Assembly (NCBI GenBank): GCA_034430555.1
Contig: DAOUEM010000362.1
Location: forward strand, 1,722-65,721
Length of the DNA stretch: 64,000 nucleotides
DNA from: Anaerolineae bacterium
Lineage (GTDB): Bacteria > Chloroflexota > Anaerolineae > Aggregatilineales > Ch27
Direction of reading: 5' to 3'
Shown piece after piece: positions 2,044 to 58,270 of this stretch (within the stretch, counting starts at the first letter, position 1; every line of letters begins with the position of its first letter). Under the pieces are notes generated by a model, which saw only the letters and a program-made list of their open reading frames with translations, had not been told where the DNA came from and searched no databases. The translations under genes were made by a program, and so were the position numbers.

Positions 2044-2091
2044 GTGGCACAGTGATAAGGAAGATGTCAGGTGAGAGGGAGGGAGAACTCC

Positions 2092-3405
2092 ATGAAATCG
2101 CTGCGGATGGCATTGTTAGGGCTGTTGATCGTGCTGGTGGGGCAGGTTGGATCGGGGGTGGTTGGCGCGCAGGGCGGCGGGTCCTGGCGGGTGCTCTCGG
2201 CGGAACGACTCGAACTGCCGGAAGGCGTGTCGCTATTTTTCCCCGCGCCGGACGGGCGTCAGGTCGCTTACGAACTGCCGGACGGAGAAGGCGGCTGGCA
2301 GCTCTGCCGCTTCCAGGTGGTAACCGGCGAACGGGCCTGTTATCCGCACCCGTTCCCGGAGGCGCATATCTCAATCGATCAGCCGTGGTCACTCGCGCCG
2401 CGTCCGCTGGCCTGGTCGCCGGACGGCAGTCAATGGGCGGTAACCGGACAGCCGCTGCTGCAGCCCTTCATCGATACCGACCCGGTGGTCATCGACCTGG
2501 CGACGGGCGCGCAAACCATCCTGTTGGACGACGGGCATGCCGGTTCGATCTATGGTGCGACGGATAACCCCGTATGGATCGACATGGTGCCCACCTGGTC
2601 GCCGGACGGCACACAGCTTGCCTTCTGGCGCTGGACCGTCAACGCCGACGATACGATTGCTGTACCGGTGGTGATCGTCGCCGCAGTGGATGGCGGCGAG
2701 CCGCGTACGCTGTTCACGCTGCCGGTTGCGGTGCCGGACCCGCGCATGATCGACATGGCCTGGTCGCCCGATGGCAATACGCTGGCACTGAACCTGCCGC
2801 TGTGGGACGACGAGGGGCGAGGCGGCCTGTGGTTGATCGACATCGATAGCGGACGCCTGACGCAATCCATTGACCAGCAGGCGGCAATAGATGTGCTGCT
2901 ATACGCCCATGGCCTGCGCTACCTGGACTACAGCCATGTGACGGCTGGCCTGGCCTGGCCGCTGGCCTGGTCGCCGGCTGGGACACAGGTGTTGTTCCGG
3001 TTGGCGGAACTCGCCGAGCAGCCTTCGCTGGCCGCCTGGCCCGCCTGGAGAGACCTCGTCGATGGCTGGGTGGTATCACTCTCCGTCGAGCCGCCGCCTT
3101 ACGTCGATCCCGATGGTGGCTGGCGTTTTATGCCGCTGTGGTTCACCTGGTCCCCGGATGGCGGGACCATTCTCGTGGCCGGGCCGGAGTACCCCCAGCC
3201 GCCCGATGATGCCCTGCAACCGTTGGGCGACTCCCTCGACTTTGCTGCTGCCTGGGAGGCGCATACCGTCTTCCTGGTGGACGTGGCGAGCGGCGCGGTC
3301 ACGCTGCTGGGCCACCTGCCGGACGAAGGCTTCCACCTGCCGGTCTGGGGTCCGGCGGGCGACGTGCTGCTCTGCGGCCATCGCCTGGTCCTGGCGCGGG
3401 AATAA
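2092..3405 (+). CDS. Secreted PD40/TolB-type beta-propeller repeat protein
   Basis: Signal-peptide-like N-terminus 'MKSLRMALLGLLIVLVGQ'. Five 'WSP[DA]G' repeats. GAGGGAGGGAG RBS before the ATG at 2092. Confidence 0.7.
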   Translation: MKSLRMALLGLLIVLVGQVGSGVVGAQGGGSWRVLSAERLELPEGVSLFFPAPDGRQVAYELPDGEGGWQLCRFQVVTGERACYPHPFPEAHISIDQPWSLAPRPLAWSPDGSQWAVTGQPLLQPFIDTDPVVIDLATGAQTILLDDGHAGSIYGATDNPVWIDMVPTWSPDGTQLAFWRWTVNADDTIAVPVVIVAAVDGGEPRTLFTLPVAVPDPRMIDMAWSPDGNTLALNLPLWDDEGRGGLWLIDIDSGRLTQSIDQQAAIDVLLYAHGLRYLDYSHVTAGLAWPLAWSPAGTQVLFRLAELAEQPSLAAWPAWRDLVDGWVVSLSVEPPPYVDPDGGWRFMPLWFTWSPDGGTILVAGPEYPQPPDDALQPLGDSLDFAAAWEAHTVFLVDVASGAVTLLGHLPDEGFHLPVWGPAGDVLLCGHRLVLARE

Positions 3406-3540: not shown

Positions 3541-6465
3541 ATGACCGCCAAACCTGCCGCCGTATTGGATTTCGCCGCCGACCTTGCCCCCCAACTGCAA
3601 GGCGATGTCCGCACCGATACCTACAACCGCGTGCTGTACAGCACCGACGCCAGCATCTACCAGGTGATGCCGCTGGCCGTGGTGGTGCCGCGTAACGCCG
3701 ACGACGTGATCGCCGCCGTGCAGACCGCCGCCCGCTATCAACTGCCGGTCCTGCCGCGCGGCGGGGGCACCAGCCTGGCCGGCCAGACGGTGAACGAAGC
3801 TGTGATCATCGACCTCAGCCGCCTCAGCCGCATCCTGGAGATCAACGCCGCCGAGCGCTGGGTGCGCGTCGAGCCGGGCATTATCCGGGCGCGCCTGAAC
3901 GCCGCCCTGGGCCAGCGCGGCTTCAAGTTCGGCCCGGACCCGGCCACCGACAACCGCGCCCAGATCGGCGGCATCACCGGCAACAACTCCACCGGCTCGC
4001 ACAGCATCCTCTACGGCATGACCGCCGACCAAGTGATGCAGATGGACACCGTGCTGGCCGACGGCTCGCGCGTCGACTTCGGCCCGCTGAGTGACGAAGA
4101 AGTCGCGCAGAAGGCGGCGCTCGATTCGCTGGAGGGGCAGGTTTACCGGGGGCTGACGGCCATCCTGGCTGAGCACGGCAAGGCCATCCGCGACCGGCTG
4201 CCCCGCACCTGGCGGCGCTGCGGCGGCTACAACCTGGAACGGCTGATCCCCGGCGCGACCGATAACGTGTCGCCCATGCCGCCCCAGCGCTGGGCCGATG
4301 ACCGCTTCAACCTGGCCAAGCTGATGACCGGCAGCGAGGGCACGCTGGGCACGGTGCTCGGCGTGCAGTTGAACCTGGTGCCGTTGCCCCGGGCGAAGGG
4401 CCTGGCCGTCCTGCACTTCGATGACCTGTATGCCGCCCTGGAAGCCATCCCGGCGCTGCTGGAAGTCGGGCCGAGCGCCGTCGAGCTGCTCGACCAAACG
4501 CAGATGGACCTTTGCCGCCAGTCGGAGGTGTGGTCGCGGCGGCTGTATTTCGTGGAAGGCCGTCCGTCGGCGGTGCTGATCACCGAGTTTTACGGCGAAA
4601 ACGAGGCCGAGGTCGCCGCCAAGCTGGACCGGTTGGCGGCGCTCGTCAAGGGATTGCCCGTCGGGGCGATGCCGCGGCTGACCGATGCCCGGTCCCAGGC
4701 GGACGTGTGGGACATACGTAAGGCCGGGCTGGGCCTGTTGATGAGCCTGCGCGGTGATGCCAAGCCGCTGCCCTTCATCGAGGACGTGGCCGTGCCGGTG
4801 GACCACCTGGCCTCTTACATCCGCGACGTGCAGCGCGTGTGCGACGCGGTCGATACGCCGCTGGCGATGTACGCTCATGCCAGCGCCGGCTGCGTGCACC
4901 TGCGCCCCATCGTCAACCTGAAGGACGCCCAGGGCATCCGCGATATGGAGACCATCGCCCGGATGACGGTTGACCTGGTGCTGGGTTATCACGGCGTGCT
5001 GAGCAGCGAGCACGGCGACGGCCGCGTGCGCTCCTGGCTGAACCGCTACTTTTTCGGCGACGAGGTCTACGAGGCCTTCCGGCAGGTCAAGGCCGCTTTC
5101 GACCCGGAAGGGCGTTTGAACCCCGGTAACATCGTCGACGCGCTGCCCATCGACCGGCACCTGCGCTTCGGCGCGGATTACCAGACCGTGCCGCTCTACG
5201 AAAACCTGGACTGGTCGGCCGATCACGGCTTCGCCGGGGCGGTCGAGATGTGCAATGGGGCGGCCGTCTGCCGCAAGGTCGACGGCGAGACGATGTGCCC
5301 CAGCTACATGGTCACCTTCGAGGAGGAACACAGCACGCGGGGCCGGGCCAACCTGCTGCGCGCCGCCATGATGGGCCTGCTCCCGCGCGATCAGTTGTTC
5401 GGGGAGCGGATGGCCGAGGTGATGGAGCTGTGCATCTCCTGCAAGGCCTGCAAAACCGAGTGCCCCTCCCGCGTGGACATGGCCAAGATCAAGCTGGAAT
5501 GGCAGGGCCACTACTGGCGGCACCACGCACCCTCCCTGCGAACGCGCCTCTTTGCCCACATGCCGCTCTTCAGCCGGATCGGCAGCCGCTTCGCGCCGCT
5601 GGCCAACGCCGTGCTGGGCTTCCGTCTGACCCGCAACCTGCTTGACCTGGCACTGGGCATCGACCGCCGCCGCAAGCTGCCATCCTTTGAACCGGCCTTT
5701 ACCTCGCAATCGCGCCCCTTCACCCCAACCGGCAAGAAGGTCGTGCTATACGTGGACACCTGGGCCAACTACCACGAGACCGCCGTCGCCCAGGCCGCCT
5801 GGGACGTGCTGACTGCCGTCGGCTACGAGGTGATCGTGCCGGGCTACGCCTGCTGCGGGCGCACGTACCTCTCGAAGGGTTTCGTGGACCGGGCGCGCCA
5901 GGCCGCCGACCGCGTGATGAACATCCTGGCCCCCTATGCGCGCGCTGGCGTGCCCATCGTCGGGCTGGAACCGAGCTGCATCCTGACCGTGCGCGACGAG
6001 CACCAGTACCTCAGTCAACACCCCGACCGTGAAACCGTGGCCGCGTTTACCTTCACCTTCGAGGAGTTCGCCGCCCAGCACGCCGACGAATGGGCCGACC
6101 TGTTCGAAGCGGACGCGAGTCCGGTCTTGATGCACGGCCACTGTCACCAGAAGGCGATGGTTGGCACCGACCCGGCCCGGACGGCGCTCGGCCTGTGCCA
6201 TGACCACGTGCACGAAGTCGACTCTGGCTGCTGCGGCATGGCGGGCGCTTTCGGCTACGAGAAGGAGCACTACGACCTCTCCAGGCAGATGGCTTATCGT
6301 AAGCTGGTTCCGGCCATGAGCAGCGCCGCCGAGGACGTGACGCTGGTCGCGGCGGGCACTTCCTGCCGCCACCAGATCAAGGATTTTGCCGGTAAGGATG
6401 CCCTGCACCCGGCCCAGGTGTTGGCGGGCGCTTTGCGAAGAAAGGCGAGCAGTGTCCACGAATGA
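3541..6465 (+). CDS. FAD-linked oxidase fused to a 4Fe-4S / cysteine-rich (GlcD-GlcF type, YdiJ-like) dehydrogenase
   Basis: FAD-binding PCMH-type region 'PRGGGTSLAGQ'; Fe-S motif 'CISCKACKTECP'; C-terminal CCG-type 'CCG' motifs. Start taken at ATG 3541; the ORF track starts at 3493. Confidence 0.85.
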   Translation: MTAKPAAVLDFAADLAPQLQGDVRTDTYNRVLYSTDASIYQVMPLAVVVPRNADDVIAAVQTAARYQLPVLPRGGGTSLAGQTVNEAVIIDLSRLSRILEINAAERWVRVEPGIIRARLNAALGQRGFKFGPDPATDNRAQIGGITGNNSTGSHSILYGMTADQVMQMDTVLADGSRVDFGPLSDEEVAQKAALDSLEGQVYRGLTAILAEHGKAIRDRLPRTWRRCGGYNLERLIPGATDNVSPMPPQRWADDRFNLAKLMTGSEGTLGTVLGVQLNLVPLPRAKGLAVLHFDDLYAALEAIPALLEVGPSAVELLDQTQMDLCRQSEVWSRRLYFVEGRPSAVLITEFYGENEAEVAAKLDRLAALVKGLPVGAMPRLTDARSQADVWDIRKAGLGLLMSLRGDAKPLPFIEDVAVPVDHLASYIRDVQRVCDAVDTPLAMYAHASAGCVHLRPIVNLKDAQGIRDMETIARMTVDLVLGYHGVLSSEHGDGRVRSWLNRYFFGDEVYEAFRQVKAAFDPEGRLNPGNIVDALPIDRHLRFGADYQTVPLYENLDWSADHGFAGAVEMCNGAAVCRKVDGETMCPSYMVTFEEEHSTRGRANLLRAAMMGLLPRDQLFGERMAEVMELCISCKACKTECPSRVDMAKIKLEWQGHYWRHHAPSLRTRLFAHMPLFSRIGSRFAPLANAVLGFRLTRNLLDLALGIDRRRKLPSFEPAFTSQSRPFTPTGKKVVLYVDTWANYHETAVAQAAWDVLTAVGYEVIVPGYACCGRTYLSKGFVDRARQAADRVMNILAPYARAGVPIVGLEPSCILTVRDEHQYLSQHPDRETVAAFTFTFEEFAAQHADEWADLFEADASPVLMHGHCHQKAMVGTDPARTALGLCHDHVHEVDSGCCGMAGAFGYEKEHYDLSRQMAYRKLVPAMSSAAEDVTLVAAGTSCRHQIKDFAGKDALHPAQVLAGALRRKASSVHE

Positions 6466-7594
6466 TCGCAAAAACAAACCCGAAGCCCCACTCGGCGGAT
6501 ATGTGATCGCCAGCATATTTGTGCTGGGTTTGGCGATTTGGGCTTTGGTCTTTTTGCTGAGGCAGTTTGCCAACCGCGGCTCGCTTTCGCCACAACTGGT
6601 CGATGGGTTGGCTGTACTCGCCGTGCTGGTCACGTTGGGGATGATTCTGCGGCCACCGCTGGTTCAGTTCTTCGCCACTGTGCGTGAGTTGCGTCAGTTC
6701 CCGCCGCCGGGGCAAAGGATAAAGCTTAACGGGCATCGGCTGCACCTGCATGTTATGGGGCAGGGTCCGGTGACGGTCATCTTTGAGGCTGGGGCGACCG
6801 GGTGTTCGTTGGATTGGAGCCTTGTGCAGCGAGAGGTGGCGCAATTCGCGCGTGTTTGCACCTATGATCGTGCGGGATACGGGTGGAGCGATCCCGGCCC
6901 CAGGCCGCGCACCAGCGCGCAGATCGTGGCGGAATTACGTACTCTGTTGCACCGTGCGAGCGTTCCAGGGCCGTATGTGCTGGTCGGGCATTCGGATGGC
7001 GGTTATCACGTTCGGCTGTTCGCCAGTCGCTACCCGGATGAAGTGGCGGGCCTCGTATTGGTCGATCCGGCGCACGAAGACCCTGAAGGACGTCTCGTAC
7101 CGTCTATGGCTTTTCCAAACAAGCCGTTTATACAAGGCCTCAAGGCAATGGCGATCACGGCGCGTTTGGGTTTGATTCGCCTGGATAAACGGGCTGACCG
7201 TTTGCTCCTCCTGCAATCCTTTGAGCAATTGCCGGCCGATATCCAGGAGGTGCGCTGGGCGCTGATGACGCTGCCGAAAGCATTTCGCGCCGCCTATGAC
7301 GAACTCAGCGTCCTGCCAGAAAGTGCGTTACAGGTCAGTGCCGCCGACCCGCTGCCGGACGTGCCGCTGGTCGTTCTCACGGCTGACGCCCATGATCCTG
7401 CGGGGCTGCCGCCCGACTTCCCGCTTGAGGGATTCGAGACCGTTTGGCGGGAGCTGCAAGCAGAGTTGGCGGGCCGTGTCCCTCGCGGCAAACAGGTCAT
7501 CGTCGAGGAGAGCTGCAGCAGCTTTATTCACCTGAATCGGCCTGATGCCGTGATCGAGGCTATTCGGATGGTGATTCAAGAAACTCGGCAGTGA
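6452..7594 (+). CDS. Membrane-anchored alpha/beta-fold hydrolase
   Basis: N-terminal TM helix, nucleophile elbow 'GHSDGG', and HG-like 'VIFEAGATG'. In-frame GTG at 6452 follows GAAAGG; the start is uncertain. Confidence 0.75.
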   Translation: MSTNDRKNKPEAPLGGYVIASIFVLGLAIWALVFLLRQFANRGSLSPQLVDGLAVLAVLVTLGMILRPPLVQFFATVRELRQFPPPGQRIKLNGHRLHLHVMGQGPVTVIFEAGATGCSLDWSLVQREVAQFARVCTYDRAGYGWSDPGPRPRTSAQIVAELRTLLHRASVPGPYVLVGHSDGGYHVRLFASRYPDEVAGLVLVDPAHEDPEGRLVPSMAFPNKPFIQGLKAMAITARLGLIRLDKRADRLLLLQSFEQLPADIQEVRWALMTLPKAFRAAYDELSVLPESALQVSAADPLPDVPLVVLTADAHDPAGLPPDFPLEGFETVWRELQAELAGRVPRGKQVIVEESCSSFIHLNRPDAVIEAIRMVIQETRQ

Positions 7595-7601
7595 GTGGAT
7601 T

Positions 7602-7685
7602 GGCCGCCACCCGATCAAGGACTTCGCCGGTAAGGACGCCCTGCACCCGGCCCGGGTCCTGGCAAGTCGGTTGAAGGAGCGATGA
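7602..7685 (+). pseudogene. Remnant of the 3-prime end of a second FAD/Fe-S oxidase gene
   Basis: 7602-7663 matches 6364-6425 (the end of the oxidase CDS) at 54 of 62 positions by hand alignment. It translates to 'RHPIKDFAGKDALHPARVLASRLKER*' versus 'RHQIKDFAGKDALHPAQVLAGAL'. Confidence 0.6.
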
Positions 7686-7692
7686 TAGACAG

Positions 7693-7953
7693 ATGCCCTC
7701 ACGCGAACGAAACGAGCGGAAGTTTGGCAACTGGGAAGAATTACCGGATGGCGGGCGTCGCTACTGGCGCGAGCGGTCCGGCAGGCATTGGGGATTTCAG
7801 CGCATGATATTGCTCGTCGATGCGGACGAGAATACGGTATTGTTATTACAAGAAATCTACGATGATGATGGGACGTTGATGGAGCGGCATCAGAAGTATC
7901 CTGAGGATACCGGCCATGAAGTCCTGAAAGAGCGGGAGGACGAGTCGGCATGA
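7693..7953 (+). CDS. Hypothetical small protein (86 aa)
   Basis: ORF whose stop overlaps the next ORF's start in ATGA. G+C visibly lower than the flanks. No motif recognised. Confidence 0.5.
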   Translation: MPSRERNERKFGNWEELPDGGRRYWRERSGRHWGFQRMILLVDADENTVLLLQEIYDDDGTLMERHQKYPEDTGHEVLKEREDESA

Positions 7954-8204
7954 TCACACGGCAAACGGTGAGCGAACAAATACTGGCCTATCTCAACGAA
8001 GAAATCACGCTGGCCGAACTGGTGGACTGGTCAGAAAGAGCAGTGGGTTTCGCCGAAATAGAGCCAGATGATGATATCGACCTGCTAATGGATATTTTGA
8101 TGTATCTGGCGGCGGCGGACTCGGCGGCATTCCCCTTGACGTGGGGCGTGCTGTCGGGTTTTCTCAGGCAGTTGGGGGTGTCCGTCCGGGTGCTGGCGGC
8201 CTAG
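7950..8204 (+). CDS. Hypothetical small acidic protein (84 aa)
   Basis: Translationally coupled to the preceding ORF by a 4-nt overlap. No motif recognised. Confidence 0.5.
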   Translation: MITRQTVSEQILAYLNEEITLAELVDWSERAVGFAEIEPDDDIDLLMDILMYLAAADSAAFPLTWGVLSGFLRQLGVSVRVLAA

Positions 8205-8219
8205 GTTCTGAGAGGTGTT

Positions 8220-8303
8220 GTGCCTTTTCTGATTCTCTTCCTCGGCCTCGCCCTGCTGCTGATCGCCATCTGGCTGTGGCGGCGGGCTTGGCGGCGCGGT
8301 TGA
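8220..8303 (+). other. 27-codon mini-ORF duplicating the N-terminal TM helix of the 9217 gene
   Basis: 'VPFLILFLGLALLLIAIWLWRRAWRRG*' versus 'MEFLTLTAGLVLLLIAIWLWRRTRRR...'. 8241-8298 matches 9238-9295 at 52 of 58 positions, including a 34-nt perfect run. GAGAGG precedes the GTG. Confidence 0.4.
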
Positions 8304-8325
8304 AGCGTGGTTAAGGAGACTTCTG

Positions 8326-9213
8326 ATGGGTACAAGCTACGGCGCTTACATTGTCGATTCGCCGCCTTTCACGCTAGACCTGGATGACATCAGGGCGCAT
8401 TTGCCTGATGGGTGGACCATCAGCGATGGCCGTCCATCGAACCGAGAAGGACTGCAGGAGTATACCGTCAGCTTTACTTATCAAGCCACGAACCCAATAC
8501 AGGCTGAGCGTCAGTGGAAGGCAGAAGTTACGCTTCACGACGATGGCAGTGTGTTCGTTTACCGGGGGTGGTACGATTTTATCTATTTCCTGGAGTGGTA
8601 TCGCACGTACCTGTCGCCCGAATACAAGCTGATGGCGTCGCTTGGAGTACTGACGGGCCGAGGTAATTACACCATCATGCCCGGCTTCACGTGGGACACG
8701 ATAGATCGCGAGTTGGAAAATGTAGGGCTGAAAGCGGAGATTGCCCCCTCCGATTTTTGGATTGGCCCTGCTCCGGATGTCGACCAGAGTTTGCAAGGGC
8801 AAGCGCTATTGAGCGCGCTGCGCACTTCGTACCCACATGCAATCGTATTTGCTGAGGAACCTGAGGAAAAAATCGTCTGGTATTGGTATGCGATGTGGGG
8901 TGTCGTAGACGTTGACCGTAAGAATGTAACCATTGTTGACCGCGACACTTCTCGGCTGGTCAATGTCGTGGATTGGTTTCGCGACCTGCTGCCAGAGGAA
9001 AGCCGCCGGTATTTTCAATGCACTATACGTAGCAAGCGCACGTTTTACACGCCTGTTGTGGACGAACACGACCACCGGTTGACGCTAAACGAGGTCAACG
9101 AAATGAGCATGAACATGGGCGACGGTTTTGATGTGGAACGATTGGCGGAGATTTGTGAGTATCTACGGGGGTTTGGCACGGAAGGCAAAACGCTGCCGGA
9201 AAAGCAACCGTAA
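8326..9213 (+). CDS. Hypothetical protein (295 aa), compositionally atypical
   Basis: Long ORF with AAGGAG RBS. Clearly lower G+C and different codon usage than neighbours (by eye). No recognisable motif. Confidence 0.6.
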   Translation: MGTSYGAYIVDSPPFTLDLDDIRAHLPDGWTISDGRPSNREGLQEYTVSFTYQATNPIQAERQWKAEVTLHDDGSVFVYRGWYDFIYFLEWYRTYLSPEYKLMASLGVLTGRGNYTIMPGFTWDTIDRELENVGLKAEIAPSDFWIGPAPDVDQSLQGQALLSALRTSYPHAIVFAEEPEEKIVWYWYAMWGVVDVDRKNVTIVDRDTSRLVNVVDWFRDLLPEESRRYFQCTIRSKRTFYTPVVDEHDHRLTLNEVNEMSMNMGDGFDVERLAEICEYLRGFGTEGKTLPEKQP

Positions 9214-9216
9214 CCC

Positions 9217-10194
9217 ATGGAATTCCTGACGCTGACCGCCGGCCTCGTCCTGCTGCTGATCGCCATCTGGCTGTGGCGGCGGACGCGGCGGCGCGTGACC
9301 CGGTTCGCCGTTGCCGTCCCGCTGACCGTGTTGGCGGTGATCGCCATCGTGGTGGGTGGGGTGCTCGTCTGGTACACCCACCGCCCGCTGCCACCGCCCG
9401 TCGACGCGTTGCCGCTGTTCCAGGGCATCACCTACACCCGCGAAGTCCACTCTGAGCCGCGCCCGCTGGTGATCCACGTGGTCGCCATCGACCTGACCGC
9501 GCCCGGCATCGGCTTCCTGGTCACGCCCGGCGACCCGGCAGGCGACCACCAACTGGCGGCCCGCACGACCTCACATTTTTTGCAGACCTCCGGTGTGCAG
9601 GTCGCCATCAACGGCGACTTTTACCGGCCCTGGTGGTACAACGGTCCCTGGGACTACTATCCCCACGACGGCGACCCGGTCAGCGTATATGGCGCGGCGG
9701 TCTCCGAGGGCGTGCGCTATTCGACGTCCGACGAAGTGTGGCGCTGGTCGCTGGCCCTTACCGCGGACAACCGGGCCAGCTTTGAAACCGGCGAGGCGGC
9801 GGGGTACAACGTGATCTCCGGCGACGTGATGATCCTGGTGGACGGCCAGGCGGTGGACCTTTCCGCCAACGTCTACCACCTGGACCCGCACCCGCGCACC
9901 GTCGTGGCGCTGGACCGGGCGCGCGAGACGCTGCTGCTGTTCGTGGTGGATGGCCGCCAGCCCAACTACAGCGAAGGCGTCACCTCCCCGGAGTTGGCCG
10001 CCATCGCCCTGGAGTACGGGGCCTGGGATGCCATCAACCTGGACGGCGGCGGCTCGTCGACGCTGGCCGTGCAGGGGCCGGACGGTGCGCCGCGCCTGCT
10101 CAACACGCCCATCGACATCGCCATCCCCGGCCAGGAGCGTCCGGTCGCCAACCACCTGGGCGTCTACGCCCTGCCGTTACCGGGCGACTCGTAG
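9217..10194 (+). CDS. Phosphodiester glycosidase (NAGPA/DUF2233-like) family protein, membrane-anchored
   Basis: N-terminal TM segment. 'INGDFY' and 'AINLDGGGSSTL' are typical of the phosphodiester glycosidase domain. Confidence 0.8.
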   Translation: MEFLTLTAGLVLLLIAIWLWRRTRRRVTRFAVAVPLTVLAVIAIVVGGVLVWYTHRPLPPPVDALPLFQGITYTREVHSEPRPLVIHVVAIDLTAPGIGFLVTPGDPAGDHQLAARTTSHFLQTSGVQVAINGDFYRPWWYNGPWDYYPHDGDPVSVYGAAVSEGVRYSTSDEVWRWSLALTADNRASFETGEAAGYNVISGDVMILVDGQAVDLSANVYHLDPHPRTVVALDRARETLLLFVVDGRQPNYSEGVTSPELAAIALEYGAWDAINLDGGGSSTLAVQGPDGAPRLLNTPIDIAIPGQERPVANHLGVYALPLPGDS

Positions 10195-10241
10195 GGGCCG
10201 GGTGCGCGGTGCCCCAAGAGGGTATAAGGAGGGACATTCAC

Positions 10242-10826
10242 ATGACGGCTCAGGCGCCCAATACGCTGGAGATAAACGGCCACACCTACGGCATCATCGC
10301 CACCGAGGGCGAAGGGCTGCTCACGCCGTCCGATTTTGGTATTCAGCCCGTGATGATGTCGACCGCCTGCTGGCGGGGCTACATCACCCACTACGCTATA
10401 GTGGACGGCGTCCTGACCCTGGTTGGTCTGCGTATGTGCGCCGAGGAAGACCAGTACAAGCCCATCGCCGGGATCGAGCCGACCATGGAGGTGTATGAGC
10501 CGGTCGAGGGCAAGCGCTATGCCGAGGCCGTCTACAGCGACCTGGCCATCCGGACCCACTTCAGCGGGGCGATGCTGGCCGGACGTGATTTTGTCGATGT
10601 CCTGTACCGCCACATGGCTTTTCAAAAACCGTGGGGATACCGCGTCCTGCTGGAAGTGGTCGTCGCCGATGGCCGCGTGGAACGGGTGCAGGATCACTCG
10701 GATGAGGCCAGGGGCATCCGGACGGTGATCGCGCAGATGGAGAACCCGCGCGATGTGATGGACTTCGAGCGCAAAATCGGGCAGGACCGTTTTCCCTACT
10801 TCGACCGCGATCTGGGCTTCACCTGA
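10242..10826 (+). CDS. Hypothetical protein
   Basis: ORF with AGGAGG 8 nt upstream of the ATG at 10242. No motif recognised. Confidence 0.55.
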   Translation: MTAQAPNTLEINGHTYGIIATEGEGLLTPSDFGIQPVMMSTACWRGYITHYAIVDGVLTLVGLRMCAEEDQYKPIAGIEPTMEVYEPVEGKRYAEAVYSDLAIRTHFSGAMLAGRDFVDVLYRHMAFQKPWGYRVLLEVVVADGRVERVQDHSDEARGIRTVIAQMENPRDVMDFERKIGQDRFPYFDRDLGFT

Positions 10827-10860: not shown

Positions 10861-12108
10861 CTAAGCCATTCCCGCCAGCCGGAGTACGGTGTGCAGCATC
10901 ACGTCCCCCGCGTTGACTACGTCCGCGTCGCGCGTGTACTCCGCCGGGTTGTGGCTCACCCCGTCCACCGACGGCACGAAAAACATCCCGCTGGGCGTGA
11001 GCGCGCTCAAACTCATCGTATCGTGCCCGGCAAAGCTCATCAGCCGCGTGTGACTCAGGTCCAGCGACTCCGCCGCGCCCTCGATGGCGGCCATCACGCC
11101 CGCGTCCATCGGGGCCGGTGTGACGCCCCCCGCGCTCTCGATGTCCAGCGCCAGGTCGAATTCGGCAACGGTCTCCTCCGCCAGCGCGAACAGCGCCGCC
11201 CCCATCGCATCGAGCTGTTCCGACGACCCGTGCCGGAACTCCAGGGCCAGCCGGACCTGCCCCGGCACGATGTTAAACGCCCCCGGCCCGACCGCCAGCT
11301 TGCCGCAGTTGACCGTGCCCGGCAGGAAGTCGGCCAGCACCCGCTCCCTGGCCCGTCCCACGAAGGCCGCCGCGCCCCACAGCGCGTCACGCCGGCCGGG
11401 GACCGGCCTGGTGCCGGCGTGCGCCGCCTCCCCGCGGAAGGTCAGCCAGTAGTCGCGGATGCCCACGATGCCGGTCACCACGCCGATGTCGAGGCCGGCG
11501 TTTTCCAGCCGTGTGCCCTGCTCGATGTGCACCTCCACGTAGCCGGCCAGCGATGCCGGGTCGCGACGGGCGCCCAGGATGCTTTCCGGTGTCAGGCCCG
11601 CCCGGTCCAGCCCGGCCCGGAAGACGTCGGGCGGCGTGTGCGGATGGTGAATGTCCGCCTGGGTGAGCTGTCCGGCCAGGGCGCGGCTGCCCAGCAGGCT
11701 GATGTGCGTGCCCTCCTCGTCGGTGAAGCTGATGACTTCCAGGTGCACGGGTGGCGCGAAACCCGCCTCCTTGATCACGCGCAGGGCTTCCAGCGCGGCC
11801 AGCGCCCCCAGCGCCCCGTCGAAGGCTCCCCCGTCGACCACCGTGTCCAGGTGGGAGCCGAAGAGCAGGGTGGGTGCGTTCGGGTCGGCGGCGGGTAGGA
11901 CGGCGGACTGGTTGCCCGCGCCATCCACCCGGTAGATGAACCCGTCTGCCTCGACGCGCTGTTGGAACCACGTCCGCGCGGCCATGTCGGCTTCGGACAG
12001 CGCCGGGCGCGAGACCCCGCCCCCCTCCACGCCCTCCGGGGCGCCGATGGCGGCCAGGGCGGCCATATCGTCCAGCAGGCGTTGGGCGTTGACAGTCGTT
12101 GGGGGCAT
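10861..12108 (-). CDS. M20-family Zn-dependent amidohydrolase (allantoate amidohydrolase / N-carbamoyl-L-amino-acid hydrolase type)
   Basis: 'GSHLDTVVDGGAFDGALGALAALEAL', 'FTDEEG' and 'SFAGHD' motifs are characteristic of the hydantoinase/carbamoylase amidase family. Confidence 0.85.
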   Translation of the reverse strand: MPPTTVNAQRLLDDMAALAAIGAPEGVEGGGVSRPALSEADMAARTWFQQRVEADGFIYRVDGAGNQSAVLPAADPNAPTLLFGSHLDTVVDGGAFDGALGALAALEALRVIKEAGFAPPVHLEVISFTDEEGTHISLLGSRALAGQLTQADIHHPHTPPDVFRAGLDRAGLTPESILGARRDPASLAGYVEVHIEQGTRLENAGLDIGVVTGIVGIRDYWLTFRGEAAHAGTRPVPGRRDALWGAAAFVGRARERVLADFLPGTVNCGKLAVGPGAFNIVPGQVRLALEFRHGSSEQLDAMGAALFALAEETVAEFDLALDIESAGGVTPAPMDAGVMAAIEGAAESLDLSHTRLMSFAGHDTMSLSALTPSGMFFVPSVDGVSHNPAEYTRDADVVNAGDVMLHTVLRLAGMA

Positions 12109-24447: not shown

Positions 24448-26292
24448 ATGCTGCGTATCTATATCAGCTACCAGCTTCAATCCAGCGCTGCCCTTGCCAA
24501 ACAGATCGCCGACCATCTGAAAATGCAGGGCTTCTTCGTCTACGTAGACCTGCAGCGTATCGAGAAGCGCGGTTATTTCCCCGACCTGCTCAAGCACGAC
24601 ATCGCGGCCAGCGACGTCTTCATCTGTCTGGTGGCCGAAAGCACTTTTCAATCAGGGTTGGTCCGCCGCGAGATTCGACATGCGCACAGCCTGGGCAAGC
24701 CCATGATCCCCATTCTGCAGGAGGACTACTACCACCTGCCGGAAAAACCCCCGCCGCCGGACCGGTACGTCGCGGCGCTCCTGGCGGAGAAATACGTGCC
24801 TTTCCTGGACCGCAGCAAAGTCAAAAACGAGGTCAGCCTGGCGCGCCTGGGGCAGCTTTTAGCGCAGGCGGAGGCGCAGCAGGACACATCCGACTCGCTG
24901 GCCGGGTTGTGGCGGCTCGTCAGCCGGTTGGTCATGGCGACGGTAGGTCTGGCCGGTGCGGCCCTGGTACTGGTGGTGATCTTCCAGATGGTGGCCGATC
25001 TGAGGCCGGATTTCTCCGGGGGGCAGGGGCCGACGGCGGTCCCTCCCACGGTGGTCCCAGCTACGGTGGGCGTGGTGCCGGTCGCGCCGACTACGACGGA
25101 AACCGCCTCACCTGTACCGCCGCCCTCGCTGACCATGCCCGTCGGGCCGACTACGACGGAAACCGCTTCATCTGTACCGCCGCCCTCGCTGACCATGCCC
25201 GTCGGGCCGACTATCGCTCAGGCCCCGCCGACTGGTGCACTGTCTGCGACTATTCCGGCCATCGACGGGCTGCCATCAATGACGGAGCCGGTGCCGCCTG
25301 ACTCCTGGCTGGCGGAATTTGTGATCACCGCCACCGCGCTGGCCGATGCCTCCGGCGACCTGCCTACTGCGCCCTCGCTGACGGTTCAGGCGGGCTGGCG
25401 GCTGGTCTTCGCCTCGGACCGGGGCGGCGTACCCAACCTCTATATGGTCGATGCGTCCTGTTTGTTGGACGGCTGCACTGGCGCTGCCGTTGCCCCTTTA
25501 ACTGCCGCGCTGGCTGGCAGTAGTTCGCCGGCCTGGTCGCCGGACGGGGGGCGGCTGGCCTTTATCTCGGCGCGGGATGGCGCGCCCGCTGTCTGGTTGG
25601 CCGGGGCAGATGGCAGTGTTCCCACCAGGTTAACGGCTGACCTCCCGGTGGGGCAGGCCAGTGGGGATGCCTCCGCCTGGTCGCCGGACGGGACGCGCCT
25701 GGTCTACACGGCGATCCGTGACAACGGCGTGCCGGTTCTTTCCGTGATCGGGATCGATGGGACCGGCCTGCGCCGCCTGACCGGCCTGGATGGGGGCGAA
25801 GGCGGCCCTGCCTGGTCGTGGACGACGGATCGATTGGCCTTCAGCGCGGATCGCGTCGGCGACTGGGAGCTGTACACCGTCGACATGGCCTGCCTGGACG
25901 CGCCGGGCGGCTGCGACGCCAGCATCCGCCGCCTGACCGACCACCCCGGCCTGGATACCTCGCCCGCCTGGTCGTCCGATGGCAGCCGTATCGCCTTCCG
26001 TTCGGCGCGCGACGGGAACCCGGAGATATATGTCATGGCCGCCGACGGCACTGACCTGCGCCGTGTGACCACTCATCCGGCTGCCGACGATCATCCCACC
26101 TGGTCGCCGGACGGGCGCTGGCTCGTTTTCCAATCGCAGCGGGATGGCGATTGGGACCTCTACGGGGTGGCAACCACCTGCCTGGACGTCACTCCGACCG
26201 GTGACGCCTGTGAGGCCGTCCTGCGCCGCCTGACGGACAGCATCGGCTTTGACGACCAGCAGCCGGCCTGGGAGCCGTTGATCAGCCCGTAG
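24448..26292 (+). CDS. TIR-domain / single TM / Pro-Thr linker / PD40 (TolB-like) beta-propeller protein
   Basis: N-terminus 'RIYISYQ...AKQIADHL..QGFFVYVD....G....L...I..SDVFICLV...S..S.LVRREI..A...GKPMIPIL' fits the TIR_2 pattern. TM helix 'LVMATVGLAGAALVLVVIF'. Five to six 'WSPDG'-type repeats at the C-terminus. AGGAGG RBS. Confidence 0.75.
   Translation: MLRIYISYQLQSSAALAKQIADHLKMQGFFVYVDLQRIEKRGYFPDLLKHDIAASDVFICLVAESTFQSGLVRREIRHAHSLGKPMIPILQEDYYHLPEKPPPPDRYVAALLAEKYVPFLDRSKVKNEVSLARLGQLLAQAEAQQDTSDSLAGLWRLVSRLVMATVGLAGAALVLVVIFQMVADLRPDFSGGQGPTAVPPTVVPATVGVVPVAPTTTETASPVPPPSLTMPVGPTTTETASSVPPPSLTMPVGPTIAQAPPTGALSATIPAIDGLPSMTEPVPPDSWLAEFVITATALADASGDLPTAPSLTVQAGWRLVFASDRGGVPNLYMVDASCLLDGCTGAAVAPLTAALAGSSSPAWSPDGGRLAFISARDGAPAVWLAGADGSVPTRLTADLPVGQASGDASAWSPDGTRLVYTAIRDNGVPVLSVIGIDGTGLRRLTGLDGGEGGPAWSWTTDRLAFSADRVGDWELYTVDMACLDAPGGCDASIRRLTDHPGLDTSPAWSSDGSRIAFRSARDGNPEIYVMAADGTDLRRVTTHPAADDHPTWSPDGRWLVFQSQRDGDWDLYGVATTCLDVTPTGDACEAVLRRLTDSIGFDDQQPAWEPLISP
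25081..25212. repeat. 60-bp in-frame tandem repeat (about 2.2 copies) in the TIR protein linker
   Basis: 25081-25140 versus 25141-25200 is 57 of 60 identical. Encodes 'PTTTETAS[PS]VPPPSLTMPVG'. Confidence 0.9.
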
Positions 26293-58107: not shown

Positions 58108-58270
58108 TCAGTCGTCTACCTGACGGGTGTAGAGATAGGCGCTGCCGCCGGCGTCTGATCGTGAGAAGCTATTTATCCGTGTTCTGTGTATACAGATAAG
58201 CGCTGCCGCCGGCGTCTTTTCGGGAGAGGTTATTTATCCGTGTTCTGTGTATACAGATAAGCGCTGCCGC
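58108..58270. repeat. 61-bp tandem triplication spanning the 3-prime end of the 58230-58943 gene
   Basis: 58170-58209 equals 58231-58270 (40 nt perfect, offset 61). A third, diverged copy 61 nt further left (58133-58169) is 31 of 37 identical to the middle copy. Confidence 0.8.

Follow-up and report, generated by a model that had tools for sequence, protein, structure and literature searches.

How do accessory genes come to pile up between two conserved neighbours at a locus that has no recombinase, and why should each of them be bracketed by diverged copies of the end of a neighbouring gene? The locus that raises this question lies in a 64-kb stretch, referred to as the window, of a contig from a metagenome-assembled genome (MAG) of an Anaerolineae bacterium; the closest relatives of the contig are Anaerolineae MAGs, and positions are given on the + strand unless stated. 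Between a FAD/Fe-S oxidase gene and a phosphodiester glycosidase gene lie an alpha/beta hydrolase gene, two small open reading frames (orf86 and orf84) and orf295. The small pair belongs to the ancestral order of the locus, and the hydrolase and orf295 were probably added on either side of it by homology-facilitated illegitimate recombination. The record of these additions is carried by three gene-end fragments, here termed fossils A', B' and A''. The parts of the locus are as follows, a stop codon at the end of a peptide being written as "stop".

3493/3541-6465, + strand: FAD/Fe-S (CCG-domain) oxidase, conserved left flank (Pfam FAD_binding_4, FAD-oxidase_C, Fer4_8, CCG)
6365-6425, + strand: copy A, the repeated core at the 3' end of the working oxidase (RHQIKDFAGKDALHPAQVLA) and in register with its body
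6426-6465, + strand: tail A, the oxidase C-terminal tail (GALRRKASSVHE-stop), which also contains the hydrolase start region
6452-7594, + strand: cassette 1, a membrane-anchored alpha/beta hydrolase with an alternative start at 6503 (Pfam Abhydrolase_6, Abhydrolase_1)
7595-7602: junction 1, where the hydrolase stop meets the resident fragment of the oxidase without homology
7603-7688, + strand: fossil A', the last 26 resident-oxidase codons and a double stop (RHPIKDFAGKDALHPARVLASRLKER-stop-stop), lacking a start codon
7693-7953, + strand: orf86, ancestral core, coupled with orf84
7950-8204, + strand: orf84, ancestral core
8220-8285, + strand: fossil B', the first 22 resident-glycosidase codons (VPFLILFLGLALLLIAIWLWRR), with their own GTG start and Shine-Dalgarno sequence
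8285-8314, + strand: fossil A'', an oxidase C-terminal tail (GLAARLKRG-stop) in another frame than B' and fused to it
about 8285/8286: junction 2, with GG microhomology only
8326-9213, + strand: cassette 2, orf295
9217-9295, + strand: copy B, the working glycosidase start (MEFLTLTAGLVLLLIAIWLWRRTRRR), including the 34-nt run 9249-9282
9217-10194, + strand: NAGPA-family phosphodiester glycosidase, conserved right flank (Pfam PF09992)

Gene ends at the cassette borders

The two direct repeats that define the locus are located where a previous reading, made from the letters alone (the sequence-only reading), had placed them. Copy A (6365-6425) and A' (7603-7663) are identical at 54/61 positions, or 54/62 with the ends chosen in that reading, and A' continues in frame to its own stop as it had described (TGA at 7683-7685, followed immediately by TAG). 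B' (8241-8298) and B (9238-9295) are identical at 52/58 positions, including the perfect 34-nt run (8252-8285 and 9249-9282), and at 84% over 73 nt. BLASTN comparison of the window with itself, which the same reading had suggested, returned these two pairs as the sole repeats in the 6-10 kb region, and they are among the nine strongest repeats of the 64 kb. The oxidase start in the public annotation is at 3541, orf86 and orf84 overlap by 4 nt and are translationally coupled, and GC at third codon positions (GC3) is 0.61-0.68 in the four inner genes as compared with 0.88-0.91 in the oxidase and glycosidase. The sequence-only reading had noted that the patch has no recombinase, and indeed no recombinase, integrase or transposase was called within 10 kb on either side. 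The cassette ends carry no terminal inverted repeats, there is no attC-like fold (folding z-scores of -0.5 to +0.3 at the fossils and boundary regions), no tRNA or Rfam family was found in the window, and no enrichment of promoters or terminators was seen.

Both of the oxidase tails that follow the repeated core have the character of genuine oxidase ends. Alanine-leucine is present at the positions corresponding to tail A in 75 of 98 oxidase tails, against a background of 0.7% for AL and 0.1% for AL[RK], and the oxidases of L014, L015 and L096 end in "VLAGALR...", similar to tail A ("GALRRK..."). The tail of A' ("SRLKER-stop-stop") instead resembles those of L002 ("VLAARLKKKG-stop"), L168 ("VLAAALKEK...") and L083. 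The two tails nevertheless share only 4 of 24 nt, as compared with 54/61 in the core (Fisher p = 4e-10). Real oxidase ends on both copies, together with this step in divergence past the core, argue that A and A' are diverged alleles rather than a duplicated target, in agreement with the earlier claim that the duplicated ends are not fresh target-site duplications. We infer that the functional oxidase end, A with tail A, came in with the hydrolase. On the glycosidase side, the start of copy B resembles that of L001 ("MEYLPLAIGLV").

The position of A' is also informative. In L001, L171, L168 and L002 the gene that follows the oxidase, orf86 or in L002 orf84, begins at the oxidase stop, and in the window 4 nt separate the end of A' from orf86. 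Since A' thus occupies the place of the oxidase stop in L001, L171 and L168, it is the displaced resident end, and the proposal of the sequence-only reading that displaced native ends were left as fossils holds in this respect. In L001 (4036-4081) the oxidase has no stop matching that of A', and about 10 extra codons overlap the start of orf86.

Substitution patterns within the repeats give a less uniform picture. The two copies differ at 6 synonymous and 2 non-synonymous sites over the 20 codons of the A core (pS 0.40, pN 0.044), where the sequence-only reading had counted five synonymous differences out of eight. The synonymous excess is at p ~0.05 when set against duplication followed by decay of a dead copy, and at p = 0.004 against full neutrality. 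Both amino-acid changes lie in A' (Q to P and Q to R), where most close relatives have Q and L082 has E at one of the two sites. B and B' differ at 5 synonymous and 13 non-synonymous sites, with no synonymous bias. As such, the argument from synonymous bias is suggestive for A/A', with its 8 differences and p ~0.05, and fails for B/B'.

A third fossil, A'', was not part of the sequence-only reading. At 8285-8314, in another frame than B', the sequence reads GLAARLKRG-stop, which is the best match among the 1,890 stop-terminated 9-mers in six frames of the window to the oxidase tails of L002, L083 and L082 (7/9), with A' ranking second (5/9). Among 99,252 stop-terminated peptides of related loci, 7/9 was reached solely by true oxidase tails, and oxidase ends compared with A'' include VLAARLKKKG-stop of L002 and VLAAALKRG-stop of L083. 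The stretch 8220-8314 is thus a chimera, in which 22 codons from the start of a glycosidase run into 9 codons from the end of an oxidase in a different frame, with only GG common to both at the join. A Shine-Dalgarno sequence and then orf295 come after A''. An oxidase tail directly upstream of orf295 implies that orf295 once stood immediately after an oxidase gene, and hence that its donor was another version of the same locus; with the glycosidase start 3 nt downstream, orf295 would formerly have lain between an oxidase end and a glycosidase start. Apart from A' and A'', loose tblastn searches with the gene ends brought up nothing above noise. A possible further remnant of a glycosidase start, GTGGATT (compared with ATGGAAT) behind the hydrolase stop, is at 7 nt too short to judge. 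In annotation, 7603-7688 and 8220-8314 are best flagged as gene fragments rather than as small open reading frames.

Gene order in relatives and in other metagenomes

Comparison with related genomes, one of the checks put forward by the sequence-only reading, gave the following contents after the oxidase, with identities of the oxidase where determined.

L001 and L171 (78% identical): oxidase-orf86-orf84-glycosidase
L168 (65% identical): oxidase-orf86-orf84
L002 (68% identical): oxidase-orf84-glycosidase, orf84 being without orf86
L083: S15 peptidase and methyltransferase
L082: HSP90

The glycosidase orthologues are 57% identical in L001 and L171 and 48% in L002, and in L001, L171 and L168 the orf86-orf84 pair follows the oxidase in synteny, at 70-77% identity. 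The hydrolase and orf295 are absent from the loci of L001, L171, L168 and L002, and no hydrolase homologue stands beside the oxidase in any of the 160 related oxidase loci fetched. This synteny gives oxidase-orf86-orf84-glycosidase as the ancestral order. A'-orf86-orf84-B' (7603-8285) is therefore the old resident locus with its original ends, to which the hydrolase and orf295 were added on the outside. The sequence-only reading had counted the two small open reading frames as part of the mosaic accessory patch; this part of it is not retained, as the pair is ancestral core and is low in G+C in every lineage. For the same reason, low G+C was rejected as a mark of recent import of orf86-orf84. 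Slot contents differ among the window, L001/L171, L002, L168, L082 and L083, and the space between oxidase and glycosidase is a strain-variable slot in which the window stacks three alternative contents in tandem, namely the hydrolase, the resident pair and orf295.

Three contigs from other metagenomes cover parts of the locus. L173 (JGI 3300031537) matches window 7153-8609 at 100%. L162 (JGI 3300031585) contains B'-orf295-B and is identical save for a 49-bp frameshifting deletion in orf295 (8734-8782), which suggests that orf295 is dispensable or decaying in the population; in L162 (623) this deletion is flanked by short similar motifs. L172 (JGI 3300031652) equals the window minus exactly the 997-bp orf295 unit. 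It tracks B' up to 8251 and B from 9283, switching within the 34-nt identical run, is otherwise the same over 1.8 kb, and has an intact glycosidase gene whose 325-aa product begins "VPFLILFLGLA", so that in this contig the B' sequence is the start of the gene. Simple recombination within the identical run can remove the 997-bp unit.

The hydrolase combines a generic alpha/beta fold with a membrane helix at the N-terminus, and its nearest homologues are 46-48% identical and occur in unrelated contexts. For orf295, a full HMMER scan gave only distant homologues (31-33% identical) in other contexts, a word-index search gave no matches, and there was no match in Pfam, NCBIfam, PADLOC or PHROGs; the family is very rare, and the single-sequence AF2 model is poor (pLDDT 41). 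All such homologues of orf295 are 298-aa proteins encoded as two tandem paralogues, in L163 (8001-9820) and L164 (6523-8342), with a methyltransferase gene on one side and a pair of RNase H/tubulin-like genes on the other. Neither orf86, orf84 nor orf205, a gene downstream of the glycosidase, matched Pfam, NCBIfam, PADLOC or PHROGs, and for these and orf295 a sequence search of the PDB gave nothing significant. The orf84 family, for which Pfam has no match, has about 135 members, small proteins of Anaerolineae. The AF2 model of orf84 is a four-helix fold (pLDDT 96.6) for which Foldseek found nothing significant in the PDB, the top match being the colicin D immunity protein (TM 0.45, E = 3.7). 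The orf86-orf84 pair is also present in L169 (5755-6270) and L170 (3312-3827), between thioredoxin and methyltransferase genes, with orf86 apparently split between frames in both.

Origin of the added genes, and the surrounding region

We consider, with moderate confidence, that the hydrolase and orf295 are stacked additions made by homology-facilitated illegitimate recombination. The source of each addition would have been DNA of a related strain in which this locus had another form. At one end the incoming piece would have paired in register with a conserved flanking gene, namely the oxidase in the case of the hydrolase and the glycosidase in that of orf295; at its other end it would have been linked, with no homology, to a point just within the resident terminus of that gene. 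The incoming piece would have supplied a new working gene end (A with tail A, or B), and the resident end would have been cut off and pushed inward as a fossil (A' or B'), the orf295 piece also bringing the last 9 codons of the donor oxidase as A''. The junctions are consistent with such a process. Each insert has one junction in register, A and tail A continuing the oxidase and B continuing into the glycosidase. At the others, junction 2 is an out-of-frame fusion with only GG in common, and at junction 1 similarity to the oxidase begins abruptly at 7603, with microhomology there not judgeable without the donor. The truncated resident ends lie next to the resident genes in their ancestral positions, A' before orf86 and B' after orf84. 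The donor of orf295 is predicted to have an oxidase body running into "...GCTTGGCGGCGCGGTTGAAGCGTGGTTAAGGAG" and then orf295, and in the other donor a glycosidase start is expected after the hydrolase stop. The same product would also arise if a circularised fragment recombined at the short core by one crossover. The anatomy of the locus, its ancestral synteny, the three fossils and a contig lacking the orf295 unit are seen directly, whereas the mechanism itself, the donors, which of the two additions came first and how the DNA got in are inferred. The sequence-only reading had proposed cassette capture by recombination between gene ends, with foreign ends replacing the resident ones. The idea of foreign ends taking the place of native ones that persist as fossils is largely upheld, but recombination between gene ends is insufficient by itself, because it would replace genes rather than add them and because one junction of each cassette is non-homologous.

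Several observations weigh against stacked addition. No genome or contig with the donor orders oxidase-hydrolase-... or oxidase-orf295-glycosidase was found, and none of the collections searched yielded a close homologue of the hydrolase or of orf295. Scans of genomes and metagenomes with the oxidase C-terminus returned nothing closer than 80% identity, and exact look-up of hypothetical recombinant oxidases found no hydrolase-less allele. In a sliding comparison with L001, L002 and L083, identity of the oxidase shows no step near the 3' end, and that to L001 does not drop there, so there is no independent sign of imported oxidase sequence. The dN/dS evidence amounts to the small counts of 8 differences, and the divergence between B and B' is uneven, with 10 of the first 21 nt differing as against 5 of the next 48 (p = 0.001), which means that gene conversion or a recombination break at the core is needed. 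L172 may have arisen by a recent deletion or may preserve the original allele; an assembler that collapsed the sequence across the 34-nt repeat is a less likely source. Recent deletion is the simplest reading because of the otherwise complete identity over 1.8 kb.

The nearest alternative to stacked addition is insertion with long target duplication, in which a staggered break would have led to about 60 bp of target being copied on both sides, with the copies then diverging in place. Such an event would explain why direct repeats of more than 30 bp (61 and 58-73 nt) flank single-gene inserts without a mobility gene, as in the class described in PMC2853133, and a single hybrid copy is indeed present at the orf295 site in L172. 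We nevertheless disfavour it and judge it unlikely, since homology to the flanking genes continues in register outside the repeats (through tail A, and in the 21 nt that precede copy B and encode an L001-like glycosidase start), the level of divergence shifts sharply at the edges of the cores, and A'' shows that the insert carried an oxidase end. Repeats in published cases are usually more than 93% identical, and the synonymous excess in A/A', at p ~0.05, is also against it. Somewhat harder to credit is an ancestor of the order oxidase-hydrolase-orf295-glycosidase in which the middle block, A'-orf86-orf84-B', is the newcomer, having arrived by illegitimate insertion of a fragment of a relative's locus. 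This has the attraction that one event accounts for both outer fossils, and the different context of orf86-orf84 in L169 and L170 indicates that the pair moves over evolutionary time. However, the sequence upstream of orf295 is then expected to be hydrolase and is instead the oxidase tail A'', parsimony over L001, L171, L168 and L002 makes oxidase-orf86-orf84 ancestral, and an earlier loss followed by exact regain of the pair would be required; L172, if genuine, also points against it.

Elements that integrate into the 3' ends of genes commonly bring a replacement end and leave direct repeats, and the locus could on this basis be taken for the remains of site-specific integration, whether integron-like units or decayed gene-end elements whose integrase has been lost. 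The 34-nt identical core at B/B' is consistent with this, but the explanation is very unlikely given that integrase, transposase, attC-like structure and terminal inverted repeats are all missing over the ranges given above, that the two repeat pairs are unrelated to each other, that the units are single genes of 1.0-1.2 kb with no recombinase domain, and that the junction at A'' is out of frame with 2-nt microhomology. Against integron cassettes in particular, the repeats consist of coding sequence from the ends of neighbouring genes, and orthologues conserve these ends. An insertion sequence or transposon was rejected for want of a transposase and of inverted repeats at the cassette ends. 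An assembly chimera of co-occurring strain variants has to be considered for any MAG contig, and variants of this locus do co-occur (L162, L172). It is highly improbable in this case. The junctions have no sequence of k-mer length in common with their supposed partners. The right side of junction 1 and junction 2 recur at 100% in L173 and L162, which come from two further samples and a separate assembler run, and a second contig of 68,835 bp bears the same proteins.

Beyond the locus proper, the neighbouring genes are as follows.

2071-3405, + strand: PD40 protein
10209-10826, + strand: orf205
10861-12108, - strand: M28 peptidase

The position of orf205 is taken in L001 by a GH78 rhamnosidase. 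It matches no family and none of the relatives has it, which extends the variable region from the oxidase to the M28 peptidase. Elsewhere in the window there are two tandem arrays, at 58133-58270 (2.3 copies of a 61-nt unit, 92% matches, AT-richer than its surroundings) and at 25076-25213 (2.3 copies of a 60-nt unit, 94% matches), the latter probably encoding a repeated Pro/Thr-rich peptide segment. Two pairs of diverged direct repeats, 54693-55248/55963-56518 (77% over 568 nt) and 43254-43362/43650-43758 (87% over 109 nt), look like tandem paralogous genes or domains.

Comparison with known systems

Homology-facilitated illegitimate recombination is well established in the laboratory, and in nature has mostly been inferred from toxin-immunity arrays. 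Arrays of orphan and displaced ends at Rhs, contact-dependent inhibition (CDI) and type VI secretion system (T6SS) effector-immunity loci have been attributed to this process (Kirchberger et al. 2017, PMC5361080), and for the process itself that paper cites de Vries & Wackernagel 2002 and Prudhomme et al. 2002. As in the Rhs and T6SS arrays, the incoming modules of the present locus would be anchored by a conserved flank and joined illegitimately at the other end, with the resident pieces retained and pushed along into stacks of truncated ends, and with no dedicated recombinase. In contrast to those arrays, the flanks are ordinary metabolic genes rather than toxin genes, additions are found on both sides, a toxin or immunity role is shown for no cassette, and the host is an uncultured member of the Anaerolineae.

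Insertion with long target duplication has been described for restriction-modification genes (Nobusato et al. 2000; Furuta et al. 2010, PMC2853133). Common to those cases and the present locus are short gene inserts, direct repeats of more than 30 bp over gene ends, the lack of a mobility gene and the existence of a single-copy allele. The copies in the window differ in being diverged alleles with homology that runs beyond the repeat, and the insert carries fossil ends of the same locus and has no restriction-modification genes. In the minimal mobile elements of Neisseria and in replacement-type flexible genomic islets, a conserved gene pair likewise brackets differing whole-gene cassettes without mobility genes, and exchange is through the flanks. 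Those systems work by double homologous crossover and leave no fossils, whereas in the present locus alleles have been added to each other.

A further parallel is offered by chromosomal addiction modules, restriction-modification or toxin-antitoxin, which according to PMC3874152, citing Handa et al. 2001, resist allelic replacement, with rearrangements that keep the module. The resident two-gene module is likewise intact in the window, with foreign alleles added on both sides. The difference is that orf86-orf84 is hinted to be a toxin-antitoxin pair solely by the non-significant likeness of the orf84 fold to the colicin D immunity protein, and we regard it as a tentative and rather unlikely suggestion that the pair may be an addiction (toxin-antitoxin-like) module. 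If it were, cells that lost the pair by allelic replacement would die and only rare illegitimate recombinants that added alleles would survive, which would explain the additions on both sides of an intact pair and make the locus a natural record of "resistance to replacement" shaping an islet.

We therefore regard the locus as a clear natural instance of a known recombination outcome, and not as a new element. Its value lies in being an unusually legible natural record in an uncultured member of the Chloroflexota, with three gene-end fossils and a co-occurring variant that lacks one unit. The chimeric junction of a glycosidase start and an oxidase end reveals the gene order of a donor, and short out-of-frame fragments of this kind can be used to reconstruct lost alleles. 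The case also illustrates how accessory genes can pile up between housekeeping genes without the machinery of a mobile element.

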